Assembly (NCBI GenBank): GCA_002269645.1
Contig: NIVC01000028.1
Location: 310,001 to 374,000 of the forward strand
DNA: 64,000 bases
DNA from: Macrostomum lignano
Taxonomy: Eukaryota
Reading direction: 5' to 3'
A program made the position numbers and the translations under genes. Below, piece after piece: positions 38,701 to 63,747 of the stretch. The notes below the pieces were generated by a model. The model had not been told where the DNA came from, did no database searches, and saw nothing but the letters and a program-made list of their open reading frames with translations. Numbering within the stretch: position 1 is the first letter of the stretch; the number at the start of each line of letters is the position of its first letter.

Positions 38701-41700
38701 TGCACCCTGGCGCACTTTAAGCGACATAGGCACACAACCGGCGAGAGGCATTACTGCCCATTCCGCCGACTCCCCTGAGCTGGCATACAAGCGCGCGGAT
38801 ACGTACGCAGGCACACACTCACACAGGAGTGTACAGCGGCCCTAACTTTATATACATACTTAACAGGGGCGGTAAATGGTACATCCCGAAGAACTTCGTC
38901 CATGATTTCCTGAAATATTAGAGGCGCCACGGAAATCCCGAATTGTAGATATCTGAATGCAAAGAATCCCATGTGAGTAGAAATGCATGTGAGCTCTTGG
39001 CTCTCAGGGGATAGAGCCACCTGTAAGAAGGCCTGTTCTAAGTCTAGGACCGTATAGAATTTAGCGTTGGGAATCTTAGCCAGGATCTCCTCCATCTTCG
39101 GAAACCTGTACTTGTCCACGTCAATAAGACGATTGAGCGTCATAGAGTAGTCGCCACACAGTCGAATAGGTCTTACTGATCCCTCGGGCTTGACCATTGG
39201 GACTATTGGCGCTGCAACAGTAGGATTCTTGACTGAATAGATGATTCCTGAAGCAAGAAGTCTTCTTAGTTCGGTTTCTACCATAGACTTCATGGAGAAA
39301 GGAAGTGAGCGAGCAGGAAATCGCATGCCTTCCATACTCACACCCGAACGTAAGCGAAAGCTGGCAATGAAGTTTGAGTTTTGATCTCGGACGACTGGTA
39401 GGCACTTGTGTTCATTCGACACTCGAACCGCTTGATCCATTCGCACTAGGTCTAGGGACGGTATGAAGTTCATGCCCAGAATAGCTGTTGTATCTTGACC
39501 GACGTAGATGTTTTCTGAAGCAGACTTGCCACCAATAACCTGTAGCTTTGCCCCGTAGATGACAGAAGTGACCGTAGCTTGAAAACCTCCGTAAGATCTT
39601 AGTTTTTGGCTGACTGGCTGTAACTCTAAGCCTGAGCTCTTATCGATTTGATCCGGAACCACGGTTACTTGGCTGCCGGTGTCCACAAGCATGTTGACTT
39701 CGGTTTTTCCTAGACGACACCGAACAAACCACTGATCTGAGTAACCCGTTTTTGGCTGTCTAACCGCATGAATGAGTTCCAGATGGTAAGAGCTAGTGTT
39801 CCCTGGTGAAGGGCTGCAGCTTGGCATTCGTTGGATTGCGTTCATAGCCTTTGATCTGCACACGGTAGCTAGATGTTCTACCTTGCCGCATTTAGGGCAC
39901 TTGGCTTCTCGGAACCTGCATGCTGATCGTAGATGTCCCGATTTCCCACAGGTGTGACACTTAGCTGTTTTACCTTTAGGTTTGCCGCTCGACTGATTAT
40001 GCAGATGTCCCTGAGGTTGCTTGAATGAGACAGAGCGTTGAGCACTGCAGCTTCTTGGTCTCGAGAATGTCCCAGCATTCTGCACATTAGCGATAGTTTC
40101 CGGCTTGTCTGTAGCAGTTGCAATTGACTCGGTCATGAGTCCCTCTTGAATAGCATCATTAAGCTCAAGCGTGCCTTTGGATAGCAGTTTTTGCCGCAGA
40201 TTCTGACTACGAAGTCCGAAGATAAACTGAGACAGGATCAGGTCTTCGCGCAATTCACCATATTGGCACTTGTTCGCCTGTTGCTTGAGCCGTGCAACGA
40301 AATTTGTAATGCTCTCCGCGTCCTTTTGAACAGTAGAATGGAACACATGTCGCTCATAGTGAAGCAGAACTTTCGGTTTGAAGTGCTCGAGCAAAGTGTC
40401 CTGAATCGACTTGAACGTAACACCGGCCTTGGTGATGTCTTCTGGTTTTATCAGCTCCTCCACCAGATTGAATGCAGATTCACCGCAGGTAGCCAGTAGG
40501 ACTGCTTTAGCTTGCTCATTCTTCTCAGTTGCCTCCAGGTAGAACAGAAGTCGTTTGAAGTATTGTTCTATCTCTGGGTAAGAAAGTGGCATCTCACCAA
40601 GACGGTACTCCATTGACTGAGCCATTTTGAGGGCAGCAGGTGCGGAATTTTCCTCGACCCTCAGTTGCTTTTTATTCTCGTCGCCATGTTTTGTTTGAAT
40701 AACGCCAAGTCAATGAATTATGGTAGTTTGAAATTAAGCTATATTTTAGCGGCAGCGCGCTCCTAGGGTCTTGTGCTCCTAAATGAAAAGATTCGAAGCT
40801 TAGCAAACAAAGGAGAGTACCGTATCGCGTCGCATAAACCATAGACTATTTTCGAAGTAAAAGTCTATACTTTGCAGTAGTCATAGCAATACGCAACAAA
40901 AAATTCCTAATTATCTGAGCTGCTCGCAGATGGACTTTCTGTTGTGTTGCTACTCTATGCGTGTGCGTAATTGTGTGTACGTTCGATGTACATCTCTTAG
41001 CTATCGATCGCATTACAATGTATGATATATAAGTGAGAGCGCGGTGAGTTTGGGAGCTTGAGAGTTTCGCCTACAAACTTGCAGACTGGCTGGCTTATTC
41101 ATTATACAACAGTTTCCAAGAGGCCTGCAGCAGCTCTGCAACAATCAGCATTGGCGAGAGCGCATCCGACTTCTCACACGCAGCTAATTTTCCATTTTTG
41201 CAGCATGATTTTCCTTTCATCTCACAATGTCTCACAAAGCACTCACGCACAGCCTCCCAGTTCTCCATCTACACCTCAACCCACACACTCTCACTACATA
41301 CGAGGCCCTGCAGCTTCCATTCTCGACTGACATCAACCGGCACCCCATTGGCTGTTAGGCAGCCAGCCAATCACAGCTCTCGCCCATCAAGCAGTCAGCC
41401 AGAGACAAGCTCAGCTGACTGGCTCTGATTGGCTGGCCTGAGACTGCAGCTCTGGTCACCCCAGCCGAATGCTGCAAAACTTGATGGACACAGCAGCGAA
41501 CTGCTCACTCACCGCTCGATGTAGCTGGCCAGCTCTGAGTGGCCGCTGAGCCTCGCCAGGTCCGACGCCGTCCGACCCTCGCGATCCTTCAGTCCGAGCA
41601 GCTCCGACCTCTTCGAGTTTCCGTGCTTGAAGCATTCATTGAACCTGGGCTCTCTGAGCAGGTGCAGCAGGTGCTTGGCGCATTTCCAGCTTCCAGTCCG

Positions 41701-42140
41701 CGCCGCCTCCATCAGCGGAGTGGCGCCGTTTTCGTTCCGCAGCCACTTTGCATCGAACGACAGCAGCGTCAGCAGCCGCAGGTGGTCCCGTCGGGCTGCC
41801 AGGTGCGCAGCCGTGTCGCCGTTCGCGTCAGCCGCCTTGGGGTTCGCGCCCAGCTCAAGTAAGTACAAGATGCATTTTTCAGTGTGCACGGGAGTCTCAG
41901 GAGCGTCGGCCGCCAGCATGAGGACGGTCCGACGAGCTGCATCAGCGCTGGAGAGCAGCTGGCGCGTTGCCAGCCGCCGCACCTGGCCGAAGTCACCTCG
42001 GATGAGATAGTGGGTGAGAGTCTGGAAATTTAAACATGTGAGTGAATTCCTGCAACTGCAACTGCAACAGAAATAATTTAATCAGAAATAAATTAAAGTT
42101 TTATTACCTTATCCTCTAACTTAGAGGCTTCATTACCCAT
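25753..42140 (-). CDS. Ankyrin-repeat caspase (ANK-caspase), 8 exons, ~667 aa
   Basis: Exons 42108-42140, 41513-42021, 36115-36169, 35557-36041, 35025-35066, 26952-27011, 26366-26723, 25753-26214. All GT-AG, phases 0/2/0/2/2/2/0 join without a stop (2004 nt). The last acceptor is the least certain. N-terminal ANK repeats, C-terminal caspase. Confidence 0.8.
27030..27105. repeat. 13/15-bp minisatellite (GTAGCTGTGTGCT)n, short copy in the pre-caspase intron
   Basis: Same unit as 48523-48915 and 58817-59185; followed by GAAGGAACT exactly as at 59187-59195. Confidence 0.95.
27471..31389 (-). pseudogene. Gypsy gag-pol (two CCHC knuckles, protease, RT, RNase H, integrase) with frameshifts
   Basis: MSLIGSIGPF..WQQYQERL, CYGC..H..C, CYAC..GH..C, VDTGAS, ICADFK, FVDDLL, CDASPYGIGAV, HQGH..C..C, HIDYAGP, SDNG, SNGQAER. 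Spread over several frames. Confidence 0.93.
31700..33935. repeat. Two ~1-kb cryptically simple pyrimidine-rich (CT) tracts (31700-32660, 32940-33935)
   Basis: Almost purine-free + strand with no fixed period. Confidence 0.95.
32669..32760. repeat. Dispersed repeat head + (GACA)n, second copy at 34921-34996
   Basis: AAGTTTCAACGCTGAGTTGCCACTATTCAAGGAGGAG.TGTCGAAATGACA followed by CAGA repeats at both loci. Confidence 0.85.
36290..40898 (-). mobile_element. Ty3/Gypsy (Mag-like) LTR retrotransposon, full length, recent, in intron 2 of the ANK-caspase gene
   Basis: 212-bp TG..CA LTRs at 36290-36501 and 40687-40898 (3 mismatches). PBS TGGCGACGAG, PPT GGTGGGGG. gag-pro-RT ORF 38751-40625, RNase H-integrase ORF 37016-38596. 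Flanks AGAAA/AAAAA. Confidence 0.95.
38674..38867 (-). mobile_element. 194-bp insertion splitting the Gypsy RT just before the YxDD box
   Basis: Flanked by GGCTGTAAATGG (38662-38673) and GGCGGTAAATGG (38868-38879). A-rich 3' end on the minus strand. Removal joins VPFTA to SYQNDII. Confidence 0.7.
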
Positions 42141-45761: not shown

Positions 45762-47505
45762 CTGCTGTGTGCTAACTCGGATGCAGCTCAAATTAAAGCC
45801 GAGCCCTTCTTCTGGTACCAATTAATTCTGCAATGAGAAAATGCTGAATCATGATCACATGCAAAGCACATGGATAGCAAAGGATTGCTAAACAGCACTA
45901 CGAGTATGGCGCGATTTTTGAACTTTCCGCTGCAATCAAAGTGCCTCACGTGAGCTCCGCAACCAACAGACAAAGTTTATCTTATCACAAAGCTTTCAAT
46001 GCTCGCACAGCTACTCAAAATAGTCAACAGCTAAACAGTTTATCATGCAGCTCTCCTGCCCAGTGTTTCTTCGACCCTTGACGTCAGTGTCAGCTGATTC
46101 TTGGGGTGTTCTGTTGTGCGTGGCGGTTCTTCTCAGGTGAGCTGTCCGCACCTCTCTTATCGGGAAGACCTGGCTCGATCTGAGCTCAGGTGCAGCCTCG
46201 GTGGCTCCACTTATCTTGTTTTTCTACAGTGTCTGCCTTGAGGTGCGACCTGTGGCACTTTTGCCCTTTTTAGTCTGTCCTTGCAGTGAATCTGAAACTC
46301 TTGTTTGGTCATCGTCTTCGCGAGACACCTCACTGGCACCCCAGTGTCCAGTTCGACCTCCGCCTGCCTCGTTCAGGTGACTCCGACAGGTGACATGCTC
46401 AGCCAGGCCTTTGAACCAAACACGAGCGTGCATTGTAGGGTGCCCAGGCTAAGCCTTGATCCTACGCCCGACCTGCTCATGGATCTGATGCTCCCCAAAC
46501 AGGCTCCCAGCCTCTGCAAGTCATGGATCGGACATTTCCCTGATAAACTATATAAGCAATGAAAACCAAGCACTCATGGCTGATGTGCAGAAACTCTCAG
46601 AAATTTTAACAGCTAAATAAGTTTTTTCTGATTAAAGCAAAACTCGAATTCACGTGCTTCAGCTTGGAGCAGTCGTGAGTTATCTGAGATTGATTCACCC
46701 TTATGCATTGGGCACACACAGAGAATAAAATGTTCCAAGTGTGCTGATTTTTTTATAGTATTTTTGAGGCAAACCAATGGATACAGAGAAAGTCAAATAG
46801 TGAACAAAAATTTCGACTTAACAAGAATCAAAATAAAATCTGGTACAACGAGTAGTTAAGCTTGTTTTCATTGGTACCGATATGAAGGCTCAGGGCTGTT
46901 GCGATTCTCCGTTGGTCTTTGGTAGAATTCACAGGAAAAGCACTTTATACTTTTTTTAAATTAGAAACTTTATCGGAGATTTCCTGTTTAAGTTTAATTT
47001 ACCGTGGGGAGCACGATAACAGTTCCAAATGCACTTAAACGGGAGCTGAACTTTGCTTTCCACCCCCACGCAGCACTTTAGGCAGGACCCATTCCCCTAA
47101 GGCATCTTTGGTCTCGCAGTCCTCCATGTTTCGCAGCCCAGTTTATGGTTTGCTAATCTGAACTGTGACAGGGTGCACTTTAATTCTGGGTTGGAAATTT
47201 CTACATGCACATGTAGCACATGCTTTTCCGTTGACCAGTACCATTTAAAACTAAAGTAAAAGTGACTCAGCTCTGAACAGCTCGGTAATCTTTGTCTACT
47301 CTTTGTCTACTCTTTGTCTACTCTTGCAATTTCTAATTTAAAACTCAGGCACTACCAGTACTTTGGCTATCTTGTAGAATTATCATGTCAAGGACGAAAA
47401 AAGTTTCTAAAAATTGCTCATACGAAGTTTACTGCAGACAGTTCCAAACTAAACAAAAGCTACGTAGAAATTTTCGCCATCGAAGAGCGCTCTGACCGGT
47501 GTCTG

Positions 47506-50500
47506 TCATTTCCGTGCACCAAAAAACGAGCTCAGGAATCGCGGTTTCAGCTTCCCACCCGCCAGGTACTCGTGCCCCATCAGCTCCAGTGCGGATCTTC
47601 TCTTCCTGCGGTCCTTGGCGGTGCAGCGGCTGTAGAAATCCCTCAGCTCTGCGGACCGGCCGTCCGGCAGGGCGGGGGCGCCCCTCCTGTCGATCAGCTG
47701 GGCCATTTCTAGCAGGCTTTTGGTGTTCGCGAACGGCCTTGAGCCGGACGCCATCTGGAAGACGGAGCAGCCGAACGCCCAGATGTCCGACTCTCTGCTG
47801 TACTGCACGCTGTCCGACTCTCCCGCTCCGAGCAGCTCTGGCGCCATGAAGTTCAGAGTGCCCTTTGGTTTCGAAGTGGAGGCTGAGATGTGGCTGACTG
47901 AATGCTCCAGCTTAATTGACAGGCCGAAGTCGATCAGCTTGATTCGCGTCTTGTCAGCACAAACAATTATGTTGGAGCAGTTGATGTCTCTGTGGATGAC
48001 GGGCGGCTGCTGGCTGTGCAGGTAGAGCAGCGCGCGGCAGATCTGCGAGCGGTCGGTCAGTGAGCAGTCATCATTCATGGGAACATGGAGCAGGAGCATC
48101 AAGGATGCACAATGCTCACCTGCTCGCTGAAGTCTCGGGTCGTCAGCTCGTCCAGCGGCTTGTTGTCGATAAACCTCTCCAAGCTTCGGCCGTCCAGCAG
48201 CTCCATGAACACAACGACTGTGGCGGGCTTCGGCTGAGCGATGTGCAAGAACCTGACGATGTTGGGATGCCGCAGTCGGCACAGGTTTCTCTCGCTCTCG
48301 ACAGCTCTGTGGATCTCTGAGCTTACATCGGTTTGGTCATCACCGAGCTGCACAGGCAGTCTGAGAGTCTTGGCAGCGCACGTGACGCCCGTGTCAGTTC
48401 GAACTTCGTGGACTTCGCCGAAGCCTCCGCGGCCGATGAGACGAACGGCGTCCCAGCGCTCCAGGAATGGGGGGCCTTCGGGTCTGAGGGGATGCGAATT
48501 GAGGCAATGAGGGATAATATGCATGCTGTAGCTGTGTGCTGTAGCTGTGTGCTGTAGCTGTGTGCTGTAGCTGTGTGCTGTAGCTGTGTGCTGTAGCTGT
48601 GTGCTGTAGCTGTGTGTGCTGTAGCTGTGTGTGCTGTAGCTGTGTGCTGTAGCTGTGTGTGCTGTAGTTGTGTGCTGTAGCTGTGTGCTGTAGCTGTGTG
48701 TGCTGTAGTTGTGTGCTGTAGCTGCGTGCTGTAGCTGTGTGTGTTGTAGCTGTGTGCTGTAGCTGTGTGTACAGTAGCTGTGTGTGCTGTAGCTGTGTTT
48801 GCTGTAGCTGTGTGTGCAGTAGCTGTGTGTGCTGTAGCTGTGTGTGCTGTAGCTGTGTGTGCTATAGCTGTGTGCTGTAGCTGCGTGCTTTTCTGTGTGT
48901 GGTGTAGCTGTCTGTACTGAATGAACTCACGGCAGTGCGAGAGGCTCGTCGAAATAAATTTTCCTGTCGTACCTGAAAAAGCAGTGCGGAGTCTGATTTC
49001 TGGCGGAATTCTGGTGAGAGCCCATCATGTTCTGTGCTAACTTACATTCTAACATTCTATTCTACCTAATTATTTTGCTTTATTTATATTTGTTACAAAA
49101 TAGATTTTTAAACATTTTCTGCAATTTAATATGGTTAAATTGAACTTAAATGTCACAGCAAAATGGTTGCTGGTGTCTCACAGCTCGCAGGCAGCTGAGC
49201 ATTAATATTCAACTGGCAATCTGCAGTCAACTGCACTGCAAACTCCTTCACTGCAGCTCAGTCAGTCCCTGCTGCCGATTTAAACTACAAAAATGTAAAA
49301 ATGCTCACTCAGAGCAACTACAGTCAGCTGCTCAATATTCAATCATAAATTACAGCATAATGTTTATCAATGATAAATCAAAGTCAGAGAGACATTCTCA
49401 GTCGCCATGGAAACTCACCCACGCAGCAGCTCAGCCAGTTCGCTTATTCTGTACTCTGTGGCCAAATCCAGCGCAGTCCTGCCGTCTTCGTCCTTCAGGC
49501 TCCAATCCGCCTCTGAGTCCAGCAGAACCCGACCGACTGCGGCGGCGGTGGCAGGGGGCGCAAAGGCTGCCAGGATGAGGGGCGTTGATTTAAAGTCATT
49601 CCTCGCATTGGCGGAGGCTCCGGAAGCCAGCAGAGCGGAGGCTGCGGCAGAATTGCCAGCGGTGGCTGCATGGTGCAGGCAACAAAAAGCCCATCTATTC
49701 GCACAGGTGGGGTCACCCAGCTGCAGCAGCTGCACCCACAGAGCCTCATCACTGCACGAGCTGTTCTGAGCTGCCCGCATCAACGCGGTGCGACCCCAGT
49801 CGTCAGGCAGGTCGCAGCTGCCGCGGGTCGCCGCTCGCCGCAGCCCCGCCAAGTCGCCCGCCTCGGCCAGCCGCTGCAGTTCCTGTCGATCCGCCTCCTC
49901 CTGCAAAGGCGAGCGGGAAATTTGAGCACAGCTGCTCAGCTGCAGCCGCATCGGCACCGCAGATGCCTCTCACCTGGGCTGTCAGGCCGGAGATCCTGCC
50001 ATCCACAACCAGCCGCATCTCACTGCAACAGTAAAAATGAGCAGCGAATTTGCAATTCTCCTAAATCCAATACCTACAATCGCAAAAATAATTATTTCAT
50101 GATAAGTTTTGTAAACAGAAATTCTAATTCTAATTCTAATTCTAATCTGAGCTGCTCGCAGATGGAGTTTCCGAGAGGACTGCAGCAGCTCTGCAACAAT
50201 CAGCATTGGCGAGAGCGCATCCGACTTCTCACATGCAGCTCATTTTCCATTTCTGCAGCATGAGTTTCCTTCCATCTCACAATGTCTCACAAAGCACTCA
50301 CGCACAGCCTCCCAGTTCTCCATCTGCAGCTCCACCACACACTCTCACTGCACACCGAGGCCCTTCAGCTTCCATTCTCGACTGAGATCAACCGGCACCC
50401 CATTGGCTGTGAGGCAGCCAGCCAATCACAGCTCTCGCCCATCAAGCAGTCAGCCAGAGACAAGCTCAGCTGACTGGCTCTGATTGGCTGGCCTGAGACT

Positions 50501-51348
50501 GCAGCTCTGGTCACCCCAGCCGAATGCTGCAAAACTTGATGGACACAGCAGCGAACTGCTCACTCACCGCTCGATGTAGTTGGCCAGCTCTGAGTGGCCG
50601 CTGAGCCTCGCCAGGTCCGACGCCGTCCGACCCTCGCGATCCTTCAGTCCGAGCAGGTGCGACCTCTTTGAGCTTCCGTGCTCCTCGCACTCATTGAACC
50701 TTCCCTGCCTGAGCAGGTGCAGCAGGTGCTTGGCGCATTTCCAGCTTCCAGTCCGCGCCGCCTCCATCAGCGGAGTGGCGCCGTTGTCGTTCCGCAGCCA
50801 CTTCGCATCGAACGACAGCAGCGTCAGCAGCCGCAAGTGGTCCCGTCGGGCTGCCAGGTGCGCAGCCGTGTCGCCGTTCGCGTCAGCCGCCTTGGGGTTC
50901 GCACCCAGCTCAAATAAGTACAAGATGCACTTTTCAGTGTGCACGGGAGTCTCAGGAGCGTCGGCCACCTGCATGAGGACGGTCCGACGAGCTGCATCAG
51001 CGCTGGTGACCAGCTGGCGCGTTGCCAGCCGCCGCACCTCGCCGAATTCACCTCGGATGACGTCGTGGGCGAGAGTCTGGAGATCGGCTGGTGAGTCTCC
51101 GACGCTTGGCCGGTTGCTGGGGTCCGGCTGAGTGAGTTCCTGCAACTGCAATTGAGGCACCCAAGCTGCCCATTCAAACATGTGAGTGAGTCCCTGCAAC
51201 TGCAATTGAGGCACCCAAGCTGCACATTCAAACATGTGAGTGAGTCCATGCAACTGCAATTGAGCCTATAAATATTCTGTCTCAGTTTTCTCACTTTAAC
51301 TTTACTTACTATTTCGTCAATAGATGGTGATCTCCGTCGCTCTGCCAT
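47506..51348 (-). CDS. Ankyrin-repeat Ser/Thr kinase (MAP3K/STE11-like domain), copy A, 7 exons, ~673 aa
   Basis: Exons 51310-51348, 50568-51076, 49974-50022, 49419-49900, 48931-48972, 48120-48483, 47506-48042; phases join (2022 nt). Kinase motifs GRGGFGEV, AAK, HPNIVRF, HRDINCSN, DFG, GTLNFMAPE, SDIWAFG. An extra 3' exon cannot be excluded. Confidence 0.87.
48523..48915. repeat. (GTAGCTGTGTGCT)n 13/15-bp minisatellite in the pre-kinase intron
   Basis: Direct reading. Confidence 0.98.
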
Positions 51349-52127
51349 GGCTGCAAGCTCAGTCCGTCAGTCGCAGGTGTCTCAGCTCAGCCCGAGAGTG
51401 GTGCAGGGCAGCGGCCGCCTCTGCAGCAGATTTTATTGGCCCTGGAGCAGCTGCAGCGAATTCCTTCTCACCCTGCCTTTCTGCCTCTCCTATTGGCTCT
51501 GAGGGAACAGCAGAACTGCTGCAATGTCGGTGCGTGGCTACTTGAAGCAGTCAGTGTGTGACTGCGGAATTTCTTGCGAAGTTGGTGCAATTAACATGAG
51601 TAGAATGCATGAGGGGGCTTCTGGGACAAAATTTTTCACCTCCTCCATAATCCCATTAAATCCATCCATATTATCCCCGACAGAATCAGAGCAGGTGTCC
51701 ACTGATACCTGTTATGCTCACTGACACAGACATAATCCACTGACATCCACCCATAGCATCTTCGAAACAATCAGAAAATAATCTGCATTCTTCTCCCCAC
51801 ATTCAATCCGCAACGTGCTACCAGATCCCTAAGACTTTAAATCCCCTAACCCAGGGTCCTCACCCTTTAAAAAAAATTAAATTCTCAATAAAAATGTTTC
51901 CAGTTGTCTCTCCAGGTTCTTATTATACTCAGCCTAATCCATTGTACAAACCCAAGTACCGATGCAAACTTGAATGCAGCGAGTACATGAGAAAATATTG
52001 GCCCGGCGTTAATATCAATGTCTCTAATATTAATATTATATTTTTGCGCTCCCTCAGCAAATAGCAGTTACCCCACCCCTTTTCGAAATGCAGCTGTTGC
52101 GCTTGGCTGCGAATAATCTTTCCCGAC

Positions 52128-52628
52128 TCAAGCGCCTCTCTCAACCCCCAGCTCTTTCAACAGTCTTCCCAATTCATTGTTTGGAGCACACAAAATAAAC
52201 CCTGCTCCCGTGCGTCCGCCCTCTCTCCCTGTGCACCCGCCCTCTCTCCCCGTGCACCCACCCTCGGCGCCGACCCCCAACCCCAACTTTGTCTTACCAA
52301 AAATAACCGCCTTGACTAATTTCCTAGCAATCGACTCACGAAATCCGCTTGAAATCCCCATATTGTCGAGTCTCCTGAGGATTTCTTTGTCCCAGCGATT
52401 CTTCTCCTCAGGAAAATCTCTATATTTAACATCGTGCCACATGCAGACAGAGTCTAGCTCGTTCACAGGCTCATGCCCAGGATTTGGATTATTGTTTTTA
52501 TCTAACTGTATTTCAAATGGATTCAAAGGCCCACAATATTTGTACCCGGGAAGTGTCCAGCCTTTGTTTGGATGAGGAAGCTTTTCTATCAGTCCATGTG
52601 AATCTAACTTACCACCAGAGTGTTGCAT
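52128..52628 (-). CDS. Parvovirus VP1-type phospholipase A2 domain protein
   Basis: WTLPGYKYCGPLN (Ca-binding loop) and NELDSVCMWHDVKY (catalytic HD..Y); ATG at 52628. Confidence 0.85.
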   Translation of the reverse strand: MQHSGGKLDSHGLIEKLPHPNKGWTLPGYKYCGPLNPFEIQLDKNNNPNPGHEPVNELDSVCMWHDVKYRDFPEEKNRWDKEILRRLDNMGISSGFRESIARKLVKAVIFGKTKLGLGVGAEGGCTGREGGCTGREGGRTGAGFILCAPNNELGRLLKELGVERGA

Positions 52629-52658
52629 TATTTTATTTAAAATTTTCTTTTTAAAAAA

Positions 52659-53468
52659 ATGACAGATCAGAAACTTAAAAAACTCTACTACAGCGACAAA
52701 GGATTCTTTGTAGGCAAAAATGCCGTTAGTAAACTCATGGAGCTGAGTAAGGAACCAAAAGCTACAGTAGAAAAATGGCTCTCTAAGCAGGCTGTCTACC
52801 AAGTCTATTTCCCACCAGTAAAATTTGAAAGGCCCCATTTCAGTATTTATAAACCTAATGAGGCGCACCAAGCAGATCTTCTGTTTCTCCCCAATGACTC
52901 AGGCTACAAGTATGCTCTTACAATTATAGACATTGCTTCCAGATATAAGGAAGCTCGCCCACTCAAGACGAAGAAGTCAGAGGTCGTTGCCAGCGCACTG
53001 CAAGAGATCTATGAAACCTCTCCTCTAACCTATCCAGAAATCTTTATGACGGACCCTGGTAAGGAATTCATGGGTGCAGTGAAATCCCTTATGGAAAAGA
53101 AAAACACAGAGATTCGCTATGGCAGAAAAAACTTGCACAGAGACCAGGCTTTTGTGGAAAGATTCAATCTAACTCTAGCCAAGAGGCTATTCAATAAGCA
53201 GACAGCTGAGGAGCTGAAACTAAAAAGTGGTCAGTACTATTCAAAATATTTACTATTTAAACACACTAATATTAAATTCATGCTCACAATCATCACGATC
53301 GGGGCAGCCCTCTCCTGCCTTAATTGTTATACCTTTGTCTCTTGCAATCTTTTGCAATTCCAGCTGGTGGGCTCTATCATTCCCAGCTTTAACAGCAGTT
53401 GCTACACCTCCAGCTACACCACCTGCGGCACTTACAGCGCCTGCAATGATCGGAATAAGAGCTGCTAA
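52659..53468 (+). CDS. Polinton-type retroviral-like (rve) integrase, C-terminus probably truncated by deletion
   Basis: HQADLL, LTIIDIASRY, MTDPGKEF, QAFVERFNLTL: intact D-D-E. Similarity appears to fade after about residue 190. Confidence 0.88.
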   Translation: MTDQKLKKLYYSDKGFFVGKNAVSKLMELSKEPKATVEKWLSKQAVYQVYFPPVKFERPHFSIYKPNEAHQADLLFLPNDSGYKYALTIIDIASRYKEARPLKTKKSEVVASALQEIYETSPLTYPEIFMTDPGKEFMGAVKSLMEKKNTEIRYGRKNLHRDQAFVERFNLTLAKRLFNKQTAEELKLKSGQYYSKYLLFKHTNIKFMLTIITIGAALSCLNCYTFVSCNLLQFQLVGSIIPSFNSSCYTSSYTTCGTYSACNDRNKSC

Positions 53469-53540
53469 TGGTAGGATTCCTCCTGACTTTTCATCTGTGA
53501 TGCTGTGTCTTTGCTCATTACACTGAACTATTTGCTGCAC
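53253..53540 (-). CDS. Remnant of a small Gly/Ala-rich hydrophobic Polinton protein
   Basis: GGILPLAALIPIIAGAVSAAGGVAGGVATAVKAG..HQLELQK; frame stays open upstream to ~53610 without a Met. Confidence 0.55.
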   Translation of the reverse strand: MQQIVQCNEQRHSITDEKSGGILPLAALIPIIAGAVSAAGGVAGGVATAVKAGNDRAHQLELQKIARDKGITIKAGEGCPDRDDCEHEFNISVFK

Positions 53541-56002
53541 GGGATCGATTTTTACTTTGGCACCTTTAATTGATATAAGACCTGGTTTCTTTGATTCAAT
53601 GATTTTATTGAGATTGGGAAATATGTATAAATATGTATGGGAAATATGTATGGGAAATATATATATGAATGTGGGGAGAAGAATGCAGATTATTTTCTGA
53701 TTGTTTCGAACATGCTATGGGTGGATTTGGAGCTGTTATGCTCAGAGCATAAACCCTCAGAGCATAACAGTAGGACACCTGTTATGCTCTGATTCTGTCA
53801 GGGATAATATGGATGGATTTAATGGGATTATGGAGGATGTTTTGTGAGCGAGTGCGACCCCCCTTTTTTTTCTGATTCTGTCAGGGATAATATGGATGGA
53901 TTTAATGGGATTATGGAGGATGTTTTGTGAGCGAGTGCGACCCCCCTTTTTTTCTGATTCTGTCAGGGATAATATGGATGGATTTAATGGGATTATGGAG
54001 GACGTGAAAAATTTTGTCCCAAAAGCCCCCTCATGCCTTTTACTAACATGGCAAATATGAATAATAATTTTTTTAGGCAGACTCCATTTGTCGATCGGGA
54101 ATTCGAATTGGAAAATACTTTGCTGCGGTGAAGCAGATCAGTGAAAATAAAAACAGCGTCAGCACATTATTGTTCAGTAAGTATTCTGCTCAGACTCAAC
54201 CAGAAGACTCAGACTGCTACTTAGCAGTAGTCAGTGAGTGCTTCTAGAAGCTCACAGTTGCTACTTCAGCTCAAAAATCCACACTGACAAAACTGTTGCG
54301 AGTCGGCAGCGCCAAAAACAAGGAGACTATTTGGAATTAAGAAATTCAGAAATTTACTTATCGAACCCCTGGTCAGCTGATGGGTGCCTCCTTAGTTTAG
54401 AGATGCCAGCAGTGGTGAGCTGCTGCAGGCCTTCAAGGCTTTCTTCGGTGCCCTGCAATCGCAAAACCAAAGCGAAAACCTTTGAAGTTACACGCAGGCA
54501 ATACTTGAAGGACAAACTTTTTTTGACTGCTGAAGTGCGAGGGCAGTCCATAAAGAAGTTACGGTTTTGCCTGTAGATTATTTATTTAACAAGTTTGGAG
54601 CCATTGGAATGCGCAAATCTTAAATTTCATTTGACTGAAAATCTTGTTATTTAAGTCTTTAGTTGAATTCGCTGAGTTGTCAGTTTAAGGGCGGTGATTT
54701 TTATCAATTCAAACTGCGGCAAGAATTTGCCATTGATTGAAACAAAGCTGGTGCCGATCAGGGCAGATTCCGTCTGCGGGTTCCTCAGCTTCAGGGGAAG
54801 AGCAGCTGAGGCTGCGGCTGAGTGGCCGAGATGCTGCCGAAACTCTCGAAGGCTGGCCGAATTGCAGTTGCTTTGCAGGTGGATATACTTTGCCGATGAA
54901 GTTGGTATTCTTGCACTGAATTGAATATCGAGAGAAAATATTATTGTAGAATAATTAGTCGCTACCAGCAACTGCTTTCATGGCGTGACGTCAGAGTGCT
55001 GACGGGCTGCCATGCACACCAGCGAGCGACCACGCAGTCAATTCTGATCGACGACGAGCGGGCGCAAAACGGATTATTCAATTTTTCGTAATTTCCACAG
55101 ACAAAAATGGTTGCAGCAATAATCAGCTGATGCAAGCAGACATAGAAACCATCAGGTGCTGCTGTAAGAAATTTAGAGTTCGAACATTCACTCTGCAGTT
55201 GCATATTTTTACAAATTCATCACACACTGCTCTGTGAATTGAGGCTGTTCTCTCCCCAGACAGCCTCCCAGCCTCTTCAAGTCATGCATGGATTTGACAT
55301 TCCCCAGATAAACTATTTAAGCAATGAAAACCAAGCACTCATCGGTAATATACAGAAATTCGCATAAATTTTAACAGCTAAAAAAGTATTTTCTTATTAA
55401 AGCAAACTCGAACTTCACGTGCTTCAGCTTTGAGCAGTCGTGAGTTATCTAAGAATTCATAGTTTGAGATTGGCTCACCTTGTATTGGGCACACAGAGCC
55501 GCAGGCGGGCAACTTCAGCGCCAAGTCGCACTGCAGGCACTGCGGCACTGATAAGGGCTGCCGATTCCCCAGTGCAGAAACTGCCTCGAGTCCGGCTTAT
55601 CTGCTCTGAGAGACTTTTGCTGCTCCTGGAGAGCAAAAACTGGCATGATTCGGAGACTTTTTCGATAAGATTTGAATAAAGTTTTGCTTTTGCAAGCAAA
55701 ACACATTGGGAGGCTCTTGAGAAGCCAGCATTACTTATTTCTGGCGTTTATTGCTATTTTTCAACATGATGGAGTGAAGTATTTGTGCTGCAATGCCGCC
55801 CCGCAATGTCGGCCGCTTGAGTTGGCGGGGCCAACCCGGCCTCCGATGTACAAGGCTTCATCATAACCCAGCTCAGCTTCCTCATTCTCCATCAGACCCC
55901 TGCTCAGCTTCCTCATTCTTCATCAAATTTCACAAATTCTGTTTTCCAGCGTCCGTGATTTCTGAAAAAAATCAAATGGGACTTTATAGAAATCGGTGGA
56001 TG

Positions 56003-56100
56003 ATGAGCTGTGATGGAGAATGGAGATCATGAGCTGTGATGGAGAATGGGGATCATGAGCTGTGATGGAGAATGGGGATCATGAGCTACGATGGATCATG
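56003..56100. repeat. 26-bp tandem repeat (ATGAGCTGTGATGGAGAATGGGGATC), ~3.5 copies
   Basis: Period 26 at 56003, 56029, 56055, 56081. Confidence 0.93.
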
Positions 56101-57100
56101 AGTGATACTGAGCACTATTGGCCTCACTATCATTCGAGTAACAACCGAATCTCTGAGCTGCAAGTCGGTGGGTGGAAGAGGTTCACGCCCCCAGACTCGA
56201 ACAGAACTGCATCAGGTGCGCACTGAGATTCCGATCAGACCCGATCTGCAGAGGCTGATGAGTCACAAGAGTTGTCCAGCCTGCACTGTGCTGCAATTCA
56301 CTCTTGGCTGCAGCTGATTAACTTTATGCCTGCAGCTTTGAACTGAGACAGGGGATCGAGCTGTACTGAAGACCAGTCTCTGCTCACCATCTTGCAGTCT
56401 CGCCCACCGAAATACGGGATTTCTAGTGAGGTTTCTGAAATTCCCAGTGTCTCTCCCATAAAGTCCGCAGCTTTAAGTCCTGCATGGCTAAGAGCAAACC
56501 TGTGGTAGTGAATATCTGAATTTCAGTGTTGTATTGCTGTTCAGAGGGCTCAGTGAGATGGCATCAGCAGGAACTTTAGTATCTGAGTAAATAAATATTA
56601 TTATTACAATCTTGCAATTTATATTATTGGCATTGAAATTAACCTAATATGTACTGAATATAGAGTTCCAAGTGTGCCGATTTTTTATTTTATAGTATTT
56701 TTGAGGCAAACTAATGGATACAAAGTCAAATGGTGAACAAAAATTTCGACCCAAAAGGAATTAAAATAAAATCTGGAACGCAGAGTAGTTGAGCTTGTTT
56801 TCATTGGTACCGATATGAAGGCCCAAAGCTAGTGCGATTCTCTGCTGGACTTTGGTAGAATTTTCAATGTCTTTATCTTCCTGAGTCACAGGAAAAGCAC
56901 TTTATACTTTTTTAAATTAGAAACTTTATCGGAGATTTCCTGTTTAACTTTAATTTATAGTGGGGAGCACTATAAAAGTTCCAAATGCACTCAACAAGGA
57001 AGTGAACTTTGCTTTCCACCCCACACAGCACTTTAGGCAGGACCCATTCCCCTAAGGCATCTTTGGTCTCGCAGTCCTCCATGTTTCGCAGCCCAGTTTA

Positions 57101-57341
57101 GGGTCGCCATCATAAGCTCCAAAAATCACATCGTCGAAAAGTTTAGCAACCACAATCTCTAGCTCTAACCCTAACCTAACCCTAAGGCACTAACCCTAAC
57201 CCTTAACCTAACCCTCAACCGTAACCCTACTTTTCGACGATGTGACTTTTCGAGCTTGTGATTTTTCGAGCTTATGACTTTTCGGGCTTGTGATGGTGGA
57301 TGCTTTTCGACGATGTGATTTTTCGAGCTTGTGATGTGCCC
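57101..57341. mobile_element. 241-bp MITE with 9-bp TSD (Mutator-type) and internal telomere-like (CCCTAA)n
   Basis: TSD CCCAGTTTA at 57092-57100 and 57342-57350. ~40-bp imperfect TIRs GGG...AAAAATCACATCGTCGAAAAG. Empty site in the paralogous segment at ~47137-47146. Confidence 0.88.
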
Positions 57342-57493
57342 CCCAGTTTATGGTTTGCTAATCTGAACTGTGACAGGGTGCACTTTAATTCTGGGTTGGA
57401 AATTTCTACATGCACATGTAGCACATGCTTTTCGGTTGACCAGTACCATTTAAAACTAAAGTAAAAGTGACTCAGATCTGAACAGCTCGGTAA

Positions 57494-57630
57494 TCTTTGT
57501 CTACTCTTTGTCTACTCTTTGTCTAATATTTGTCTACTCTTTGTCTACTATTTGTCTACTCTTTGTCTACTCTTTGTCTACTCTATGTCTATGCTTTGTC
57601 TACTCTTTGTCCACTCTTTGTCTACTCTTG
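57494..57630. repeat. 11-bp (TCTTTGTCTAC)n array, ~12 copies (about 3 copies in the paralogue at ~47290-47325)
   Basis: Direct reading. Confidence 0.92.
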
Positions 57631-57809
57631 CAATTTCTAATTTAAAACTCAGGCACTACCAGTACTTTGGCTATCTTGTAAAATTATCATGTCAGGGACG
57701 AAAAAAGTTTCTAAAAATTGCTCAAACGAAGTTTACTGCAGACAGTTCCAAACTAAACAAAAGCTACGTAGAAATTTTCGCCATCGAAGAGCGCTCTGAC
57801 CGGTGTCTG

Positions 57810-60800
57810 TCATTTCCGTGCACCAAAAAACGAGCTCAGGAATCGCGGTTTCAGCTTCCCACCCGCCAGGTACTCGTGCCCCATCAGCTCCAGTGCGGAT
57901 CTTCTCTTCCTGCGGTCCTTGGCGGTGCAGCGGCTGTAGAAATCCCTCAGCTCTGCGGACCGGCCGTCCGGCAGGGCGGGGGCGCCCCGCTTGTCGATCA
58001 GCTGGGCCATTTCTAGCAGGCGTTTGGTGTTCGCGAACGGCCTTGAGCCGGACGCCATCTGGAAGACGGAGCAGCCGAACGCCCAGATGTCCGACTCTCT
58101 GCTGTACTGCACGCTGTCCGACTCTCCCGCTCCGAGCAGCTCTGGCGCCATGAAGTTCAGAGTGCCTTTGGGTGACTGAGTGGAGGCTGACACGTGGCTG
58201 ACTGACTGCTCCAGCTTGATTGACAGGCCGAAGTCGATCAGCTTGATTCGCGTCTTGTCAGCACAAACAATTATGTTGGAGCAGTTGATGTCTCTGTGGA
58301 TGACGGGCGGCTGCTGGCTGTGCAGGTAGAGCAGCGCGCGGCAGATCTGCGAGCGGTCGGTCAGTGAGCAGTCATCATTCATGGGAACATGGAGCAGGAG
58401 CATCAAGGATGCACAATGCTCACCTGCTCGCTGAATTCTCGGGTCGTCAGCTCGTCCAGCGGCTTGTTGTCGATAAACCTCTCCAAGCTTCGGCCGTCCA
58501 GCAGCTCCATGAACACAACGACTGTGGCGGGCTTCGGCTGAGCGATGTGCAAGAACCTGACGATGTTGGGATGCCGCAGTCGGCACAGGTTTCTCTCGCT
58601 CTCGACAGCTCTGTGGATCTCTGAGCTTACATCGGTTTGGTCATCACCGAGCTGCACAGGCAGTCTGAGAGTCTTGGCAGCGCACGTGACGCCTGTGTCA
58701 GTTCGAACTTCGTGGACTTCGCCGAAGCCTCCGCGGCCGATGAGACGAACGGCGTCCCAGCGCTTCAGGAATGGGGGTCTGAGGGGATGCGAATTGAGGC
58801 AATGAGGGATAATATGCATGCTGTAGCTGTGTGTGCTGTAGCTGTGTGCTGTAGCTGTGTGCTGTAGCTGTGTGTGCTGTAGCTGTGTGCTGTAGCTGTG
58901 TGTGCAGTAGCTGTGTGCTGTAGCTGTGTGCTGTAGCTGTGTGTGCTGTAGCTGTGTGCTGTAACTGTGTGTGCTGTAGCTGTGTGCTGTAACTGTGTGT
59001 GCTGTAGCTTTGTGTGCTGTAGCTGTGTGTGCTGTAGCTGGGTGTGCTGTAGCTGTGTGCTGTAGCTGTGTGTTGTAGCTGTGTGCTGTAGCTGTGTGTG
59101 CTGTAGCTGTGTGCTGTAGCTGGGTGTGCTGTAGCTGTGTGTGCTGTAGCTGTGTGCTGTAGCTGTGTGTGCTGTAACTGTGTGCTGAAGGAACTCACGG
59201 CAGTGCCAGAGGCTCGTCGAAGTAAATCTTGCCGTCGTACCTAAATGGGCAGTGCGAAATCTGAAGTCAGTGTGAATTCTTTTGACAGCCCATGCTCTGT
59301 GCTTCATTCTTTCCATTTCTTTAAATTAACCATATAATAATATTTTTAATAGTTTTTATTCTATTGTAAAACGCTGTAATATTACCAGAAAAGCACAAAG
59401 TAATTCAGATGGCAAAATGCTTGCTGGTGTCTCACAGCTCGCAGGCAGCTGAACATTAACATTCAACTGGCAATCTGCAGTCAAACTGCACTGCAAACTC
59501 CCTCAATGCAGCTCAGTCAGTGTCTGCTGCCCATTTAAACTAAAAAAATGTAAAAATGCCCACTCAGAGCAACTGCAGTCAGCTGCTCAATATTCAATCA
59601 TAAATTACAGCATAATGTTTATCAATGATAAATCAAAGTCAGAGAGACATTTTCAGTCGCCATGGAAACTCACCCACGCAGCAGCTCAGCCAGTTCGCTC
59701 TTTCCCTCCTCTGTGGCCAAATCCAGCGCAGTCCTGCCGTCTCTGTTCTTCGGTCTCCAATCCGCCCCTGAGTCCAGCAGACCCCGACCGACTGCGGCGG
59801 CAGTGACGGGTGGCGCATGGGCTGCCACCATGAGGGGCGTGGATTTAGACAGACCTGCCCCTGCATTGGCGGAGGCTCCGGCAGCCAGCAGAGCGGAGGC
59901 TGCGGCAGAATTGCCAGCCCCGGCTGCACGGTGCAGGCAACTTTCACCAATTAAATTCGCACAGGTGGGGTCACCCAGCTGCACCAGCTGCTCCCACAGA
60001 GCCTCATTACCGCACGATCTGTTCTGAGCTGCCCACATCAACGCGGTGAAACCAAAACTGTCAGGCAGGTCGCAGCTGCCGCGGGTCGCCGCTCGCCGCA
60101 GCCCCGCCAAGTCGCCCGCCTCGGCCAGCCGCCGCAGTTCCTGTCGATCCCGCTCCTCCTGCAAAGGCGAGCGGGAAATTTGAGCACAGCTGCTCAGCTG
60201 CAGCCGCATCGGCACCGCAGATGCCGCTCACCTGGTCTTTCAGGCCGAAGACCATGCCATATTTATCCATATCCAGCCGCATCTCCCTGCAACAGAAAAA
60301 TTGAGAACTGAATTTGCAATTTTCTCAAATCCGCAACTACAATCACCAAAAGAAATTTATTTATATTTTGACAGAATCTTAGTAAACAAAAATCCCCAAT
60401 TATCTGAGCAGCTCGCAGATGAAGTTTCCAAGAGGACTGCAGCAGCTCTGCAACATCAGCATTGGCGAGAGCGCATCCGACTTCTCACACGCAGCTCATT
60501 TTCCATTTCTGCAGCATGAGTTTCCTTCCATCTCACAATGTCTCACAAAGCACTCACGCACAGCCTCCCAGTTCTCCATCTGCAGCTCAACCCACACACT
60601 CTCACTGCACACCGAGGCCCTACAGCTTCCATTCTCGACTGAGATCAACCGGCACCCCATTGGCTGTGAGGCAGCCAGCCAATCACAGCTCTCGCCCATC
60701 AAGCAGAGTCAGACAGAGACAAGCTCAGCTGACTGGCTCTGATTGGCTGGCCTGAGAGTGCAGCTCTGGCCACCCCAGCCGAATGCTGCAAAACTTGATG

Positions 60801-61609
60801 GACACAGCAGCGAACTGCTCACTCACCGCTCGATGTAGCTGGCCAGCTCTGAGTGGCCGCTGAGCCTCGCCAGGTCCGACGCCGTCCGACCCTCGCGATC
60901 CTTTAGTCTGAGCAGCCGCGACCTCTTCGAGTTTTCGTGCTTCCCGTACGCATTTAATCTCCACTTTCTTAGCAGGTGCAGCAGGTGCTTGGCGCATTTC
61001 CAGCTTCCAGTCCGCGCCGCCTCCATCAGCGGAGTGGCGCCGTTTTCGTTCCGCAGCCACTTCGCATCGAACGACAGCAGCGTCAGCAGCCGCAGGTGGT
61101 CCCGTCGGGCTGCCAGGTGCGCAGCCGTGTCGCCGTTCGCGTCAGCGGCCTTGGGGTTCGCACCCAGCTCAAATAAGTACAAGATGCACTTTTCAGTTTG
61201 CACGGGAGTCTCAGGAGCGTCGGCCACCTGCATGAGGACGGTCCGACGAGCTGCATCAGCGCTAGTGACCAGCTGGCGCGTTGCCAGCCGCCGCACCTGG
61301 TCGAAGTCACCTCGGATGACGTCGTGGGCGAGAGTCTGGAGATCGGCTGGTAAGTCTCTGACGCTTGCCCGGTTGCTGGGGTCCGGCTGAGTGAGTTCCT
61401 GCAACTGCAATTGAGGCAACCAAGCTGTACATTCAGACATGTGAGTGAGTTCCTGCAACTGCAATTGAGGCAACCAAGCTGTACATTCAGACATGTGAGT
61501 GAGTTCCTGCAACTGCAATTGAGCCTATAAATATTCTATGTCTCAGTTTTCTAACTTCAACTTTACTTACTATTTCGTCAATAGATGGTGATCTCCGTCG
61601 CTCTGCCAT
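57810..61609 (-). CDS. Ankyrin-repeat Ser/Thr kinase (MAP3K/STE11-like domain), copy B, 7 exons, ~673 aa
   Basis: Exons 61571-61609, 60827-61335, 60232-60286, 59674-60158, 59199-59240, 58424-58778, 57810-58346; phases join (2022 nt). Same kinase motifs as copy A. Confidence 0.87.
58817..59185. repeat. (GTAGCTGTGTGCT)n 13/15-bp minisatellite in the pre-kinase intron
   Basis: Direct reading. Confidence 0.98.
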
Positions 61610-63747
61610 GGCTGCAAGCTCAGTCCGTCAGTCGCAGGTGTCTCAGCTCAGCCAGAGAGTCCGGCAGGGCAGCGGCCGCCTCTGCAGCAGATTTTATTGG
61701 CCCTGGAGCAGCTGCAGCGAATTCCTTCTCACCCTGCCTTTCTGCCTCTCCTATTGGCTCTGAGGGAACAGCAGAACTGCTGCAATGTCGGTGCGTGGCT
61801 ACTTGAAGCAGTCAGTGTGCGACTGCGGCTTTTCTTGCTAAATTGGTGCAGTTCAAACGCAAAATCAGATTCAGGTCAGTGCAAACACTAACAGCTTGAG
61901 CGCATCATTGTTCATTAAGTGTTCTGCTCAGCCTAAACTACAAGACTCGGACGGCTACTCGACATTAGTCAGGGAGTGCTTGCACAAGCTAACAGCTGCT
62001 ACTTCTGCTCAAAATGTCTCACTGACAAAAAGTGCTGCAGTTCGCAACTGCACTGGCTGGAAACTCCACGAGTTCGAAAATATGAAATCTCAGTGCTGCT
62101 ACTCGGTGAGGTTGTGAAAGTTGTGGTAAATTTATTCTCCCGCAGTTTTTAGGCAGAAATGGCATTGAGGCTCTTCTGGAGCGTACGTAATAGCTGCTGA
62201 CATAAAGATTGTCAGAGCTGCCCTGGAAAGATGTCTGGGAAGAGTGGAAACTGGAAATTTCAGAGAAGAGAGGCAGAAAATAGTTTCTGAAGAGGCATTG
62301 ACATAAACATAAGTGTTGGAATTGAAGATGGCCTTTTAGTTCAATTCCAAAGAGCCGTCAACGGCTGACTTGGTTATGGCAATGCAATACGTACAGCGTA
62401 TTTGCGAGCGCGAGTTACTAGGAAAATAAACTATAATTAATGTGCATGCAGTACTTATAAGCCCACAGCGAAACCGGTGCGTACCATGGTATTATCCTTT
62501 TGCCTCTTCCCATCAAGCAAACAACACTAAGCATGAATGCACACAAAGAGCCATAAACGTAAAAAAACAAATATAGAGGTGCATATAAAGTTCTATGCAA
62601 TTATTTAGAATATCCGATTTCTGGAAAGGCGAGGGAAAAAGTCAACAATGCACTTTTGTGAAATATTCTGGAATGCTCAGTGCGGGGTACCTCAGTTTCT
62701 GTGGGAGAGCAGTTGAGGCTGCGGCTGAGCGACCCGAGTTGCTGCCGAAACTCTCGAAGGCTTGCCGAATTGCAGACAGATCTACTTTGCCAAATGAAGT
62801 TGGTATTCTTGCACTGAGTTAGCCGAATGGAGTGATTTTGAGCGGAAATTCCATATATATTGCTTTAAGTAGCCACTGTTACCACAATAACGAATTCGCG
62901 GAGAAGCAAACGAACAATTTCTGGCTCTGAGCAGTGGACCTGTTCACAACTGAGCAGCATGTTTTGCTCCTCCTGGATCGAAATTCAAGCAACATTCCTG
63001 GAAAGCAACTTTTTGATTGGCTGGAACATGAACATGACCCCCTGAGCATTTCTCAACTCCTATGCTGACTGCACGTGGATCAGCCATAGGGGAGGCAATT
63101 CAGTGGGGAATGTCCTTAACCGCGAGTGAATAATTTCTACCCATGGCGGCCGAAGGCCTGCGCTCTCCCAATTTGGCACGTTTCGTTAGTAAGGTGCTGT
63201 TCGGTAAAGTCCCGGACAGTGAGCATCACCTTCGGATAGTAAATAAGGTATTTTTAGACTCCAACTCCAAGTTGGCTCTCAAATAAACCTCCCAAGAGTT
63301 TCTGGATCATCTAGCTACCGGAAAGCCTATTGGTATGTCCTTCAGGATAATCTAGAAAATGGCAACATTATCCGCTCCTGTATTTTCCCCAGCGACCATT
63401 GATAAAGCAATTGATCAACCCACTGCGAAAATGCAGGAAACAATTACCGAAGTTGTCCCAGATCGTGAACTCAGGGAGCAGCTGCCTCCTGATAGTATCT
63501 GTAAAACCAAACATAGAAGAAAACTCTACAAAACTTATAAGACCAGTATGGATAATTTCAGAGTTCTGACTGAACAACTTCTAAGGCGCTCTATTCAGGG
63601 TGCAGCGTTGCGAAAAATTTGAAGACTTTTGTAAAAGTCGCTAAAACCAGTTACAGAATGAAACCCCGGATGCTGGGTCGATATAAAAAAGATGCTGAGC
63701 GAGTCCCTCGAACTCATCTCCTTCCCCACCCTCAGTTACAAGGGAAC

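Follow-up and report, generated by a model that had tools for sequence, protein, structure and literature searches.

A rearranged single-copy derivative of a large Polinton family beside an ankyrin-repeat protein kinase gene in Macrostomum lignano

The 2.4-kb element that lies upstream of an ankyrin-repeat (ANK) protein kinase gene in Macrostomum lignano is, very probably, a dead one-off derivative of a family of 15-17 kb Polintons, whichever way it was formed. We could trace it to its parent family and observed in it breakpoints, an inversion, fillers, a truncated integrase gene and mismatched tips, all in a single copy. The two ends likely derive from two different parent copies, and the mismatched tips together with fillers that copy distant parent sequence suggest that the element arose either as a chimeric defective genome or by rebuilding in place.

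The window analyzed here is a stretch of 64,000 nt from assembly GCA_002269645.1 (contig NIVC01000028.1, positions 310,001-374,000, forward strand), and all coordinates refer to it. The element occupies 51599-54044, beginning with AGTAG and ending with TTACT, and the features of the locus are as follows.

47509..51348 (-): host ANK-repeat protein kinase gene, copy A; ATG 51348 is the likely start, and the exon joins are predicted
51593..51598 (+): left copy of the target-site duplication (TSD), AACATG
51599..52034 (+): left terminal inverted repeat (TIR), the outer 436 bp of the ~700-bp family TIR; tip alleles G5, T8 and C23
51894-52034 (+): 5' stub of the TIR-inner ORF, inside the left TIR; this ORF has 146 aa in relative L094
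52035..52042 (+): junction J1, with an 8-bp filler; the inner TIR and the variable cargo region are missing
52128..52628 (-): parvovirus-type PLA2 gene, 166 aa, an open frame with YCGP and WHD motifs as in the relatives
52659..53247 (+): integrase gene, 5' part only (residues 1-196 out of about 345)
53248..53276 (+): junction J2, with a 29-bp AT-rich filler, found only in this element
53277..53612 (-): pX-like gene fragment, inverted, lacking start and end; Adeno_PX matches the gene in relative L039
53613..53665 (+): junction J3, with a 53-bp filler, found only in this element
53666..54044 (+): right TIR, the outer 379 bp, including three tandem units of 82-83 bp; tip alleles A5, G8 and T23
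54045..54050 (+): right copy of the TSD, identical to the left 6-mer

The AG...CT termini and perfect 6-bp TSD reported in an earlier note made from the sequence were thus confirmed, and three element-free paralogous loci (L053, L059 and L060) carry a single AAAATG-like word at the place of the TSD. The TIRs of ~200 bp described in the same note do exist, with arms that align over 92 nt at 95% identity or over about 207 nt when gaps are allowed; their description has to be corrected to unequal remnants of the longer family TIR. Apart from the three short fillers, every segment of the element maps to the family TIRs, the PLA2-integrase block or the pX gene, in agreement with the reported lack of polB, ATPase, protease and capsid genes.

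Full-length relatives, which the earlier note had suggested looking for, were found in large numbers. The terminal sequence has 489 exact matches in the genome (249 forward and 240 reverse), against none for the reversed sequence used as a control, and the family comprises ~245 copies. Ends were paired from the first 100 of the 489 termini listed; the 28 pairs so obtained include 14 with a span of 14-17 kb and six with less than 4 kb, and the TSDs of 29 other end pairs are perfect in 19 cases, have one mismatch in three and at least four mismatches in seven. One copy, G000:C2087, is 15,511 bp long with the TSD AGGGTC and a ~700-bp TIR. The relatives encode PLA2, integrase, pX, pPolB, adenain, an A32 ATPase and a double-jelly-roll (DJR) capsid protein, with profile scores of 8.7e-17 for DNA_pol_B_2 (pPolB, PF03175), 4.4e-6 for Pox_A32 and 9.5e-9 for DJR-like, and a Peptidase_C5 score (4.5e-4) just below its cut-off. 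This gene set, the long AG...CT TIRs, the 6-bp TSDs and the length of 15-17 kb are shared with animal Polintons/Mavericks and with Alpha-type adintoviruses, in which PLA2 belongs to the virion module (PMC8502044, PMC8097293). The family differs from the Alpha adintoviruses as outlined in PMC8502044 in that its PLA2 and Adeno_PX matches are two separate genes flanking the integrase instead of the fused PLA2X, and its ends read AGTAGA instead of the (AG)3 or (AGT)2 given for vertebrate Polintons (PMC8502044, PMC8097293). Unlike all of these, the copy in the window retains nothing of the gene set beyond PLA2, an incomplete integrase and the pX-like fragment.

The parvovirus-type PLA2 identified earlier holds up, since frame 52131-52628(-) matches Phospholip_A2_4 with an E value of 5.5e-13; the gene contains one GGNCC site, uninterrupted, at 52528, and no large insertion in PLA2 was seen in the stretches recovered from relatives, which had been selected for similarity to the window. 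The claim of an rve integrase with intact DDE stands for the domain (frame 52659-53465(+), E 1.6e-8) and for the D-D(35)-E residues (D73, D132 and E167) and fails for the integrase as a whole. Family-derived sequence stops at 53247, and the ORF continues to 53468 with 73 unrelated residues. Among 121 integrase positions that are near-invariant (conserved at 95% identity or more across 120 homologues), 39 fall beyond residue 196 and are lost. When mapped on the predicted model of a relative's 345-aa integrase, which has helices at 197-209 and 220-223 followed by a beta domain (273-338), the window protein lacks the last two core helices and the C-terminal beta domain. A fold search with this model matched integrases of retroviral intasomes, and a PDB sequence search with the same relative's integrase as the query gave nothing meaningful (best E 0.55). 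The loss of everything beyond residue 196 makes self-integration unlikely, and we infer that the truncated enzyme is inactive; the suggestion that the element is partly self-integrating therefore finds no support. The small hydrophobic ORF, previously listed as a gene of the element, merely sits on the inverted, start-less pX-like fragment.

The small size, the TIRs and the rve integrase could also fit a cut-and-paste transposon of the Ginger/TDD type carrying PLA2 as a passenger. Ginger1 and Ginger2 have 4-bp TSDs, and Ginger1 has TGTNR ends and a transposase with a zinc finger (PMC2836005). The element has a 6-bp TSD, AGTAG ends and an integrase without the H2C2 motif, and in the relatives the same integrase adjoins pPolB and capsid genes, which refutes this origin and leaves it next to no probability. 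It is on this gene context that we assign the integrase to the Polinton type.

The three internal junctions have different histories. J1 is also present in a full-length copy at a second locus (G000:C2955), so it is inherited from a full-length lineage and is not specific to the element. We rejected C2955 as the direct parent: it shares J1, yet its flanks differ and its identity is 90%. J2 and J3 each gave one candidate genome-wide, the window itself, in a word-based search that strongly diverged copies could escape. In the J3 filler a TGGGAAATAT-type word is present three times; the word also occurs in the family's 403-aa gene, deleted here, and the 15-mer that the filler shares with this distant gene was matched as well by 55 of 5000 shuffles. 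The 13-mer match of the J2 filler is weak, with 362 of 5000 shuffles matching as well.

These junctions bear on the idea that the element belongs to a MITE-like family of mini-Polintons and is mobilized repeatedly, either in trans or with some contribution from its own integrase. Its intact tips and TSD, the retained DDE residues and PLA2, and many copies of helper size would suit such a family. However, two of the three internal junctions occur only here, the integrase is truncated and the layout recurs neither in the 39 further candidates that were scored nor in the other short copies. The only repeated short form (C124 and C289) was rejected as a mini family, because identical flanks and TSD mark the two as one duplicated locus. 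Repeated transposition as a mini-element is consequently unsupported and, for this assembly, largely refuted; we consider it very unlikely. The earlier note correctly recognized the element as a deletion derivative of a Polinton that is non-autonomous, lacking its own pPolB and capsid module and a full-length integrase; it overlooked the inversion, the templated fillers and the mismatched tips. Mobilization in trans could have occurred only in a single event, by insertion of a molecule that was defective beforehand.

The tips of the element disagree with each other at positions 8 and 23, where all the alleles are common in the family. Tips are nearly always alike within one family copy, as joint copying of the two would predict, and among the termini listed they agree at both positions in all 21 other TSD-matched copies, two of which represent one duplicated insertion. 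The A5 allele is rare (4 of 489 ends). As a donor marker it was of no use: C273 shares A5, G8 and T23 and diverges farther inward (95.7% identity across 257 bp), so that no copy could be singled out as the donor.

Discordant tips among hundreds of near-identical copies might also be expected if the assembly had fused different family members at the internal joins; J2 and J3 were seen in this assembly, and no contig among those listed bridges either of them, which also counts against the defective-genome route described below. We regard such an artefact as highly improbable, because the perfect TSD fits the paralogous empty site, J1 recurs at a second locus and contigs of runs X2 and X9, which belong to two studies, show exactly the same right host junction, including the rare A5. 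In our judgement, repetitive templated fillers are also atypical of consensus errors.

Ank and Pkinase domains were confirmed in the host gene. Copy A, one of a family of at least 40 paralogues, has Ank frames at 50567-51235 and 49418-49969 (-) and kinase frames at 48099-48500 and 47509-48336 (-), and the distance of 250 bp from its start to the TSD agrees with the earlier description. Two CCAAT boxes are situated between this start codon and the insertion, whose suggested effect on copy A expression is putative. The element is missing from copy B, as had been stated, but copy B does not offer a clean empty site, because it also lacks ~70 bp around the position. No longer element was found at the matching site in the 29 paralogous loci recovered with the left flank, and the order of events can thus not be read directly.

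We give about an even chance to the following route as a whole. In a free genome, template switching or end-joining would have linked a left end from one family member to pieces and the right end of another before insertion; an intact helper copy would then have supplied the integrase, inserting the ready-made defective genome once with a perfect TSD, and the element would have been inert ever since. Another family member is consistent with such a process: G000:C276, at 11,248 bp and with a perfect TSD, carries a capsid-side end on both sides and lacks integrase, PLA2 and pPolB, a layout that would be expected of a copy-back defective genome. Against this route, the family is mosaic throughout, with the best-matching copy switching segment by segment, and conversion of one tip could have drawn on hundreds of ectopic donors.

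Change in place is the main alternative, to which we assign a probability not far below even. Here, a full-length J1-lineage Polinton would have inserted with its own integrase, and an internal break would later have been repaired by template switching, with ~12 kb deleted, the pX piece inverted, fillers added and the right arm copied from another member. Filler-bearing deletions do form in place by abortive gap repair in Ac/Ds, P and Mutator elements. J1 exists in a full-length copy, and short deleted copies, with breakpoints that differ from copy to copy and with kept TSDs, are common in the family. Polinton remnants of C. elegans were perhaps deleted after insertion as well (10.1101/2024.01.15.575659). 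In the PLA2-integrase block, the identity between the window copy and 29 relatives never exceeds 93.9%, and 16 bases are private to the window copy, which fits some age; the relatives, however, average only 93.6% among themselves, so that this divergence is no proof of age. The private substitutions (nine silent-type and seven residue-changing) are too few and too clustered for dating or for inferring selection. Furthermore, conversion would have had to reach within 8 bp of the tip with the TSD left untouched, and a tip mismatch of this kind occurs in none of the 21 other TSD-matched copies among the termini listed.

The element has partial parallels elsewhere. Internal-deletion derivatives of Ds, P and Mutator carry filler DNA at their junctions, and like these and MITEs the window element keeps its ends around a deleted interior; unlike them, it was not amplified, and its parent replicates by protein-primed synthesis and not by cut-and-paste. 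Like deletion and copy-back defective viral genomes, it has kept ends, a rearranged interior and a putative dependence on a helper, with C276 resembling the copy-back type, whereas both are integrated DNA copies and the papers listed by our search all concern RNA viruses. Remnant Polintons such as Polinton-1_CB at the eri-6/7 locus of C. elegans, for which the timing of deletion is likewise left open (10.1101/2024.01.15.575659), are also partial copies adjoining a host gene that have lost replication and capsid genes; the window element differs from them in its intact tips and TSD, templated fillers and inversion. None of the papers listed in our non-exhaustive literature search deals specifically with mini-Polintons or copy-back Polintons, and passages of 10.1101/2025.02.07.637071, 10.1101/2023.08.22.554363 and PMC6431247 contribute nothing on them.

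Non-autonomous Polintons are present in Repbase, and the replication and integration of Polintons are themselves mostly inferred. A single dead remnant carries little weight, as defective copies are the rule and 96% of vertebrate Polinton loci are reported to be degraded (PMC8097293); the value of this element is as a record of mechanism. Tips from two lineages inside a perfect TSD, together with an integrase-less, copy-back-like copy, would point to recombining free genomes inserted in trans. We propose, tentatively and with more doubt than belief, that this family makes deletion, chimeric and copy-back defective genomes extrachromosomally, that a helper integrase inserts them with perfect TSDs, and that the window element and C276 are their germ-line fossils. 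If true, such fossils would be an indirect sign that an animal Polinton passes through a free phase of multi-copy replication and is integrated in trans.

The ends of the element lie at 51599 (left, AGTAG...) and 54044 (right, ...TTACT), and AACATG flanks both sides. At the matching place in the element-free paralogous loci L053, L059 and L060, the flanks are continuous and contain a single 6-mer similar to AACATG. The pair is thus a true target-site duplication (TSD), perfect over 6 bp as the earlier note had claimed. The TIRs of ~200 bp proposed there extend over ~207 nt when gaps are allowed, but match at 95% only over 92 nt. The right host junction was bridged without differences by contigs of two studies (runs X2 and X9); the left host junction was found in one contig among those listed (X6), which holds just 27 letters of the element, and none of the contig pieces listed spanned the internal junctions.

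We searched the organism's own genome (764 Mb) with the element and obtained 929 candidates. Of the 40 that we scored, the window itself was the only one with the layout of this copy. A 20-base terminal motif had 249 forward and 240 reverse exact matches, with 0 for its reversed control. Among the fetched relatives there are genes for PLA2, an integrase of 345 aa, a pX-like protein, pPolB, adenain, an A32-type ATPase and a double-jelly-roll capsid protein, and full-length relatives were found, for example on contig G000:C2087 (15,511 bp, TIRs of ~700 bp, TSD AGGGTC). This gene set and the TSDs identify the element as a Polinton, as had been proposed, and not a Ginger element, for which PMC2836005 gives TSDs of 4 bp; the 6-bp TSD and the relatives' pPolB and capsid genes rule the latter out. 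Facing end pairs (28, from the first 100 of 489 ends) spanned 14-17 kb in 14 cases, less than 4 kb in six, 4-14 kb in two and longer distances in six. The TSD was perfect over 6 bp in 19, had one mismatch in three and was absent in seven of 29 non-window pairs, namely 27 of the 28 facing pairs with the copies on C2087 and C2955; a thirtieth pair, C897, had no match and was left out. Deleted copies of small size are thus nothing unusual in this family.

Other arrangements were observed among the family members. Deleted members include one of 8,669 bp (L032:425-9093, G000:C33), which keeps integrase and capsid-module sequence without pPolB, and L080, L081, L077, L078 and L079, of 3,836, 3,573, 869, 716 and 640 bp. 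The cargo region between left TIR and PLA2 (L002-L030) varies in length between copies and holds several different ORFs of 200-260 aa. In L007:732-1501, L008 and L044:6366-6618, one member's right end is followed after ~250 bp by the PLA2 block of a second member lacking its left TIR, in a head-to-tail-like order with no obvious TSD. In nested members (L091:431, L092:5893, L128; G000:C27), the TSD at the right end pairs with the one at the outer left end and not with that of the closer left end. Another member begins 5 kb past the window (L085:5305, G000:C28:379305), and one adjoins an ANK-kinase paralogue (L039/L040, G000:C1414).

The window copy consists of four family segments and three joins carrying filler DNA (J1-J3).

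Features of the window copy
52035-52042: J1, between the left TIR remnant (outer 436 bp) and the PLA2 block
53247: integrase break, where the family integrase sequence stops
J2: 29-bp filler between the integrase break and the inverted pX-like piece
Inverted pX-like gene piece: 336 bp, in relatives ~500 bp further on in the opposite orientation
J3: 53-bp filler between the inverted pX-like piece and the right TIR
Right TIR remnant: outer 379 bp, after J3

The small hydrophobic ORF of the earlier note is the inverted pX-like piece, devoid of the gene's start and end. The J3 filler contains three copies of one word, whose 15-mer matches the family's 403-aa gene in the deleted part, many kilobases away; 55 of 5000 shuffles equalled this match, and 362 of 5000 equalled the weaker best match of the J2 filler, a 13-mer. 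Word-based searches, whose copy counts are lower bounds, returned one genome-wide candidate each for J2 and J3, the window itself, and two for J1. The second J1 candidate, on C2955 (L130:422 to L131:6254), is full-length at 14.8 kb and 90% identical, and it has other flanks and no matching TSD. J1 is therefore an older lineage mark, J2 and J3 being confined to the window. The remaining short copies have breakpoints of their own, and just one of them, C124/C289, recurs, with the same flanks in both places. The multi-copy check thus spoke against a transposing mini-element; the reduction to 2.4 kb probably occurred once, with a second copy apparently absent from the assembly.

Pfam detected rve in the + strand ORF at 52659 and, in accordance with the earlier claim, a parvovirus-type PLA2 on the - strand, whose gene is open (166 aa) with the relatives' motifs. 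The integrase keeps the claimed DDE residues (D73, D132, E167), but the protein's own sequence stops at residue 196. At least 95% identity was seen at 121 positions across the best 120 of 577 homologues; 82 of these positions precede the break and 39 follow it. In the predicted structure of a relative's 345-aa integrase (mean pLDDT 82), the N-terminal part is helical and the catalytic core is present, together with further helices (197-209, 220-223) and a beta domain (273-338); a fold search matched it to the integrases of foamy-virus and HIV intasomes (best E 2.8e-13). Retroviral integrases dimerise through the last core helices and bind DNA with their C-terminal domain. With both lost, the truncated window integrase is predicted to be inactive, which argues against the suggested partial self-integration.

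At the polymorphic tip positions 8 and 23, left and right end carry the same allele in all 21 other TSD-matched copies. For independent ends, with allele frequencies of 0.29 and 0.33, the chance of such agreement is ~2e-5 and ~4e-6, respectively, which are rough figures because the copies are related and two of the 21 are one duplicated insertion. If every other pair with complete tips is counted, position 8 agrees in all 28 and position 23 in 27, the lone disagreement being a nested mis-pair. The window tips differ from each other at positions 5, 8 and 23, and the window's position-5 allele is carried by 4 of 489 ends. This disagreement suggests that the two ends likely came from different family lineages, although the TSD is perfect; mosaicism throughout the family counts against over-reading it, and so does the lack of any allele showing an earlier state of the insertion site among the fetched paralogous loci. 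The simplest single event would be that fragments of two free Polinton genomes were joined and that a helper integrase then inserted the product once, before a further replication round could make the tips alike; we assign this route an even chance. Repair in place, copying from another family member, would account for the same facts if conversion extended within 8 bp of the tip, and we consider it plausible at somewhat below even probability. The member on C276 (L082:399-10000 and L083:1-2646; G000:C276:289398-300645; 11,248 bp) has arms of ~4.75 kb and a 1.75-kb loop. It carries two capsid-side ends, with arms 99.6-99.7% inverted-identical and a perfect TSD (TAGATG), without PLA2, integrase or pPolB. 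It looks like a copy-back defective genome, and its layout fits the joining of free genomes; it could also have been rebuilt in place.

As previously noted, the insertion lies 250 bp upstream of an ANK-kinase gene, copy A, measured from the TSD to the likely start codon at 51348; the gene has Ank and protein-kinase frames. The element is indeed missing from copy B, but so are ~70 bp around the site. The 309 bp between gene and insertion have 42 candidate places in the genome, so copy A belongs to a large paralogue family. Because two CCAAT boxes (51496 and 51439) sit between insertion and ATG, the sequence suggests that the core promoter was likely left unbroken. Three tandem ANK-kinase paralogues occupy 35000-42100, 46500-51600 and 55200-62800 of the window (A and B 91.5% identical), and a third copy, besides A and B, is interrupted by a ~5 kb insert at roughly 36250-41100.

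According to PMC8502044, PLA2 and pX-like accessory genes mark the virion modules of Alpha-type adintoviruses as one fused gene, whereas the Macrostomum lignano family has two separate genes. Vertebrate Maverick loci are described as mostly defective in PMC8097293, and Polinton remnants altering a host locus are described for C. elegans in 10.1101/2024.01.15.575659. Our literature search, in the texts available, found no publication devoted to mini- or copy-back Polintons. The window element is a one-off and likely dead leftover from a large family of Polintons, real but mostly ordinary. Its chimeric tips and templated fillers lend it some modest interest, since it may be a defective viral genome preserved as a fossil.
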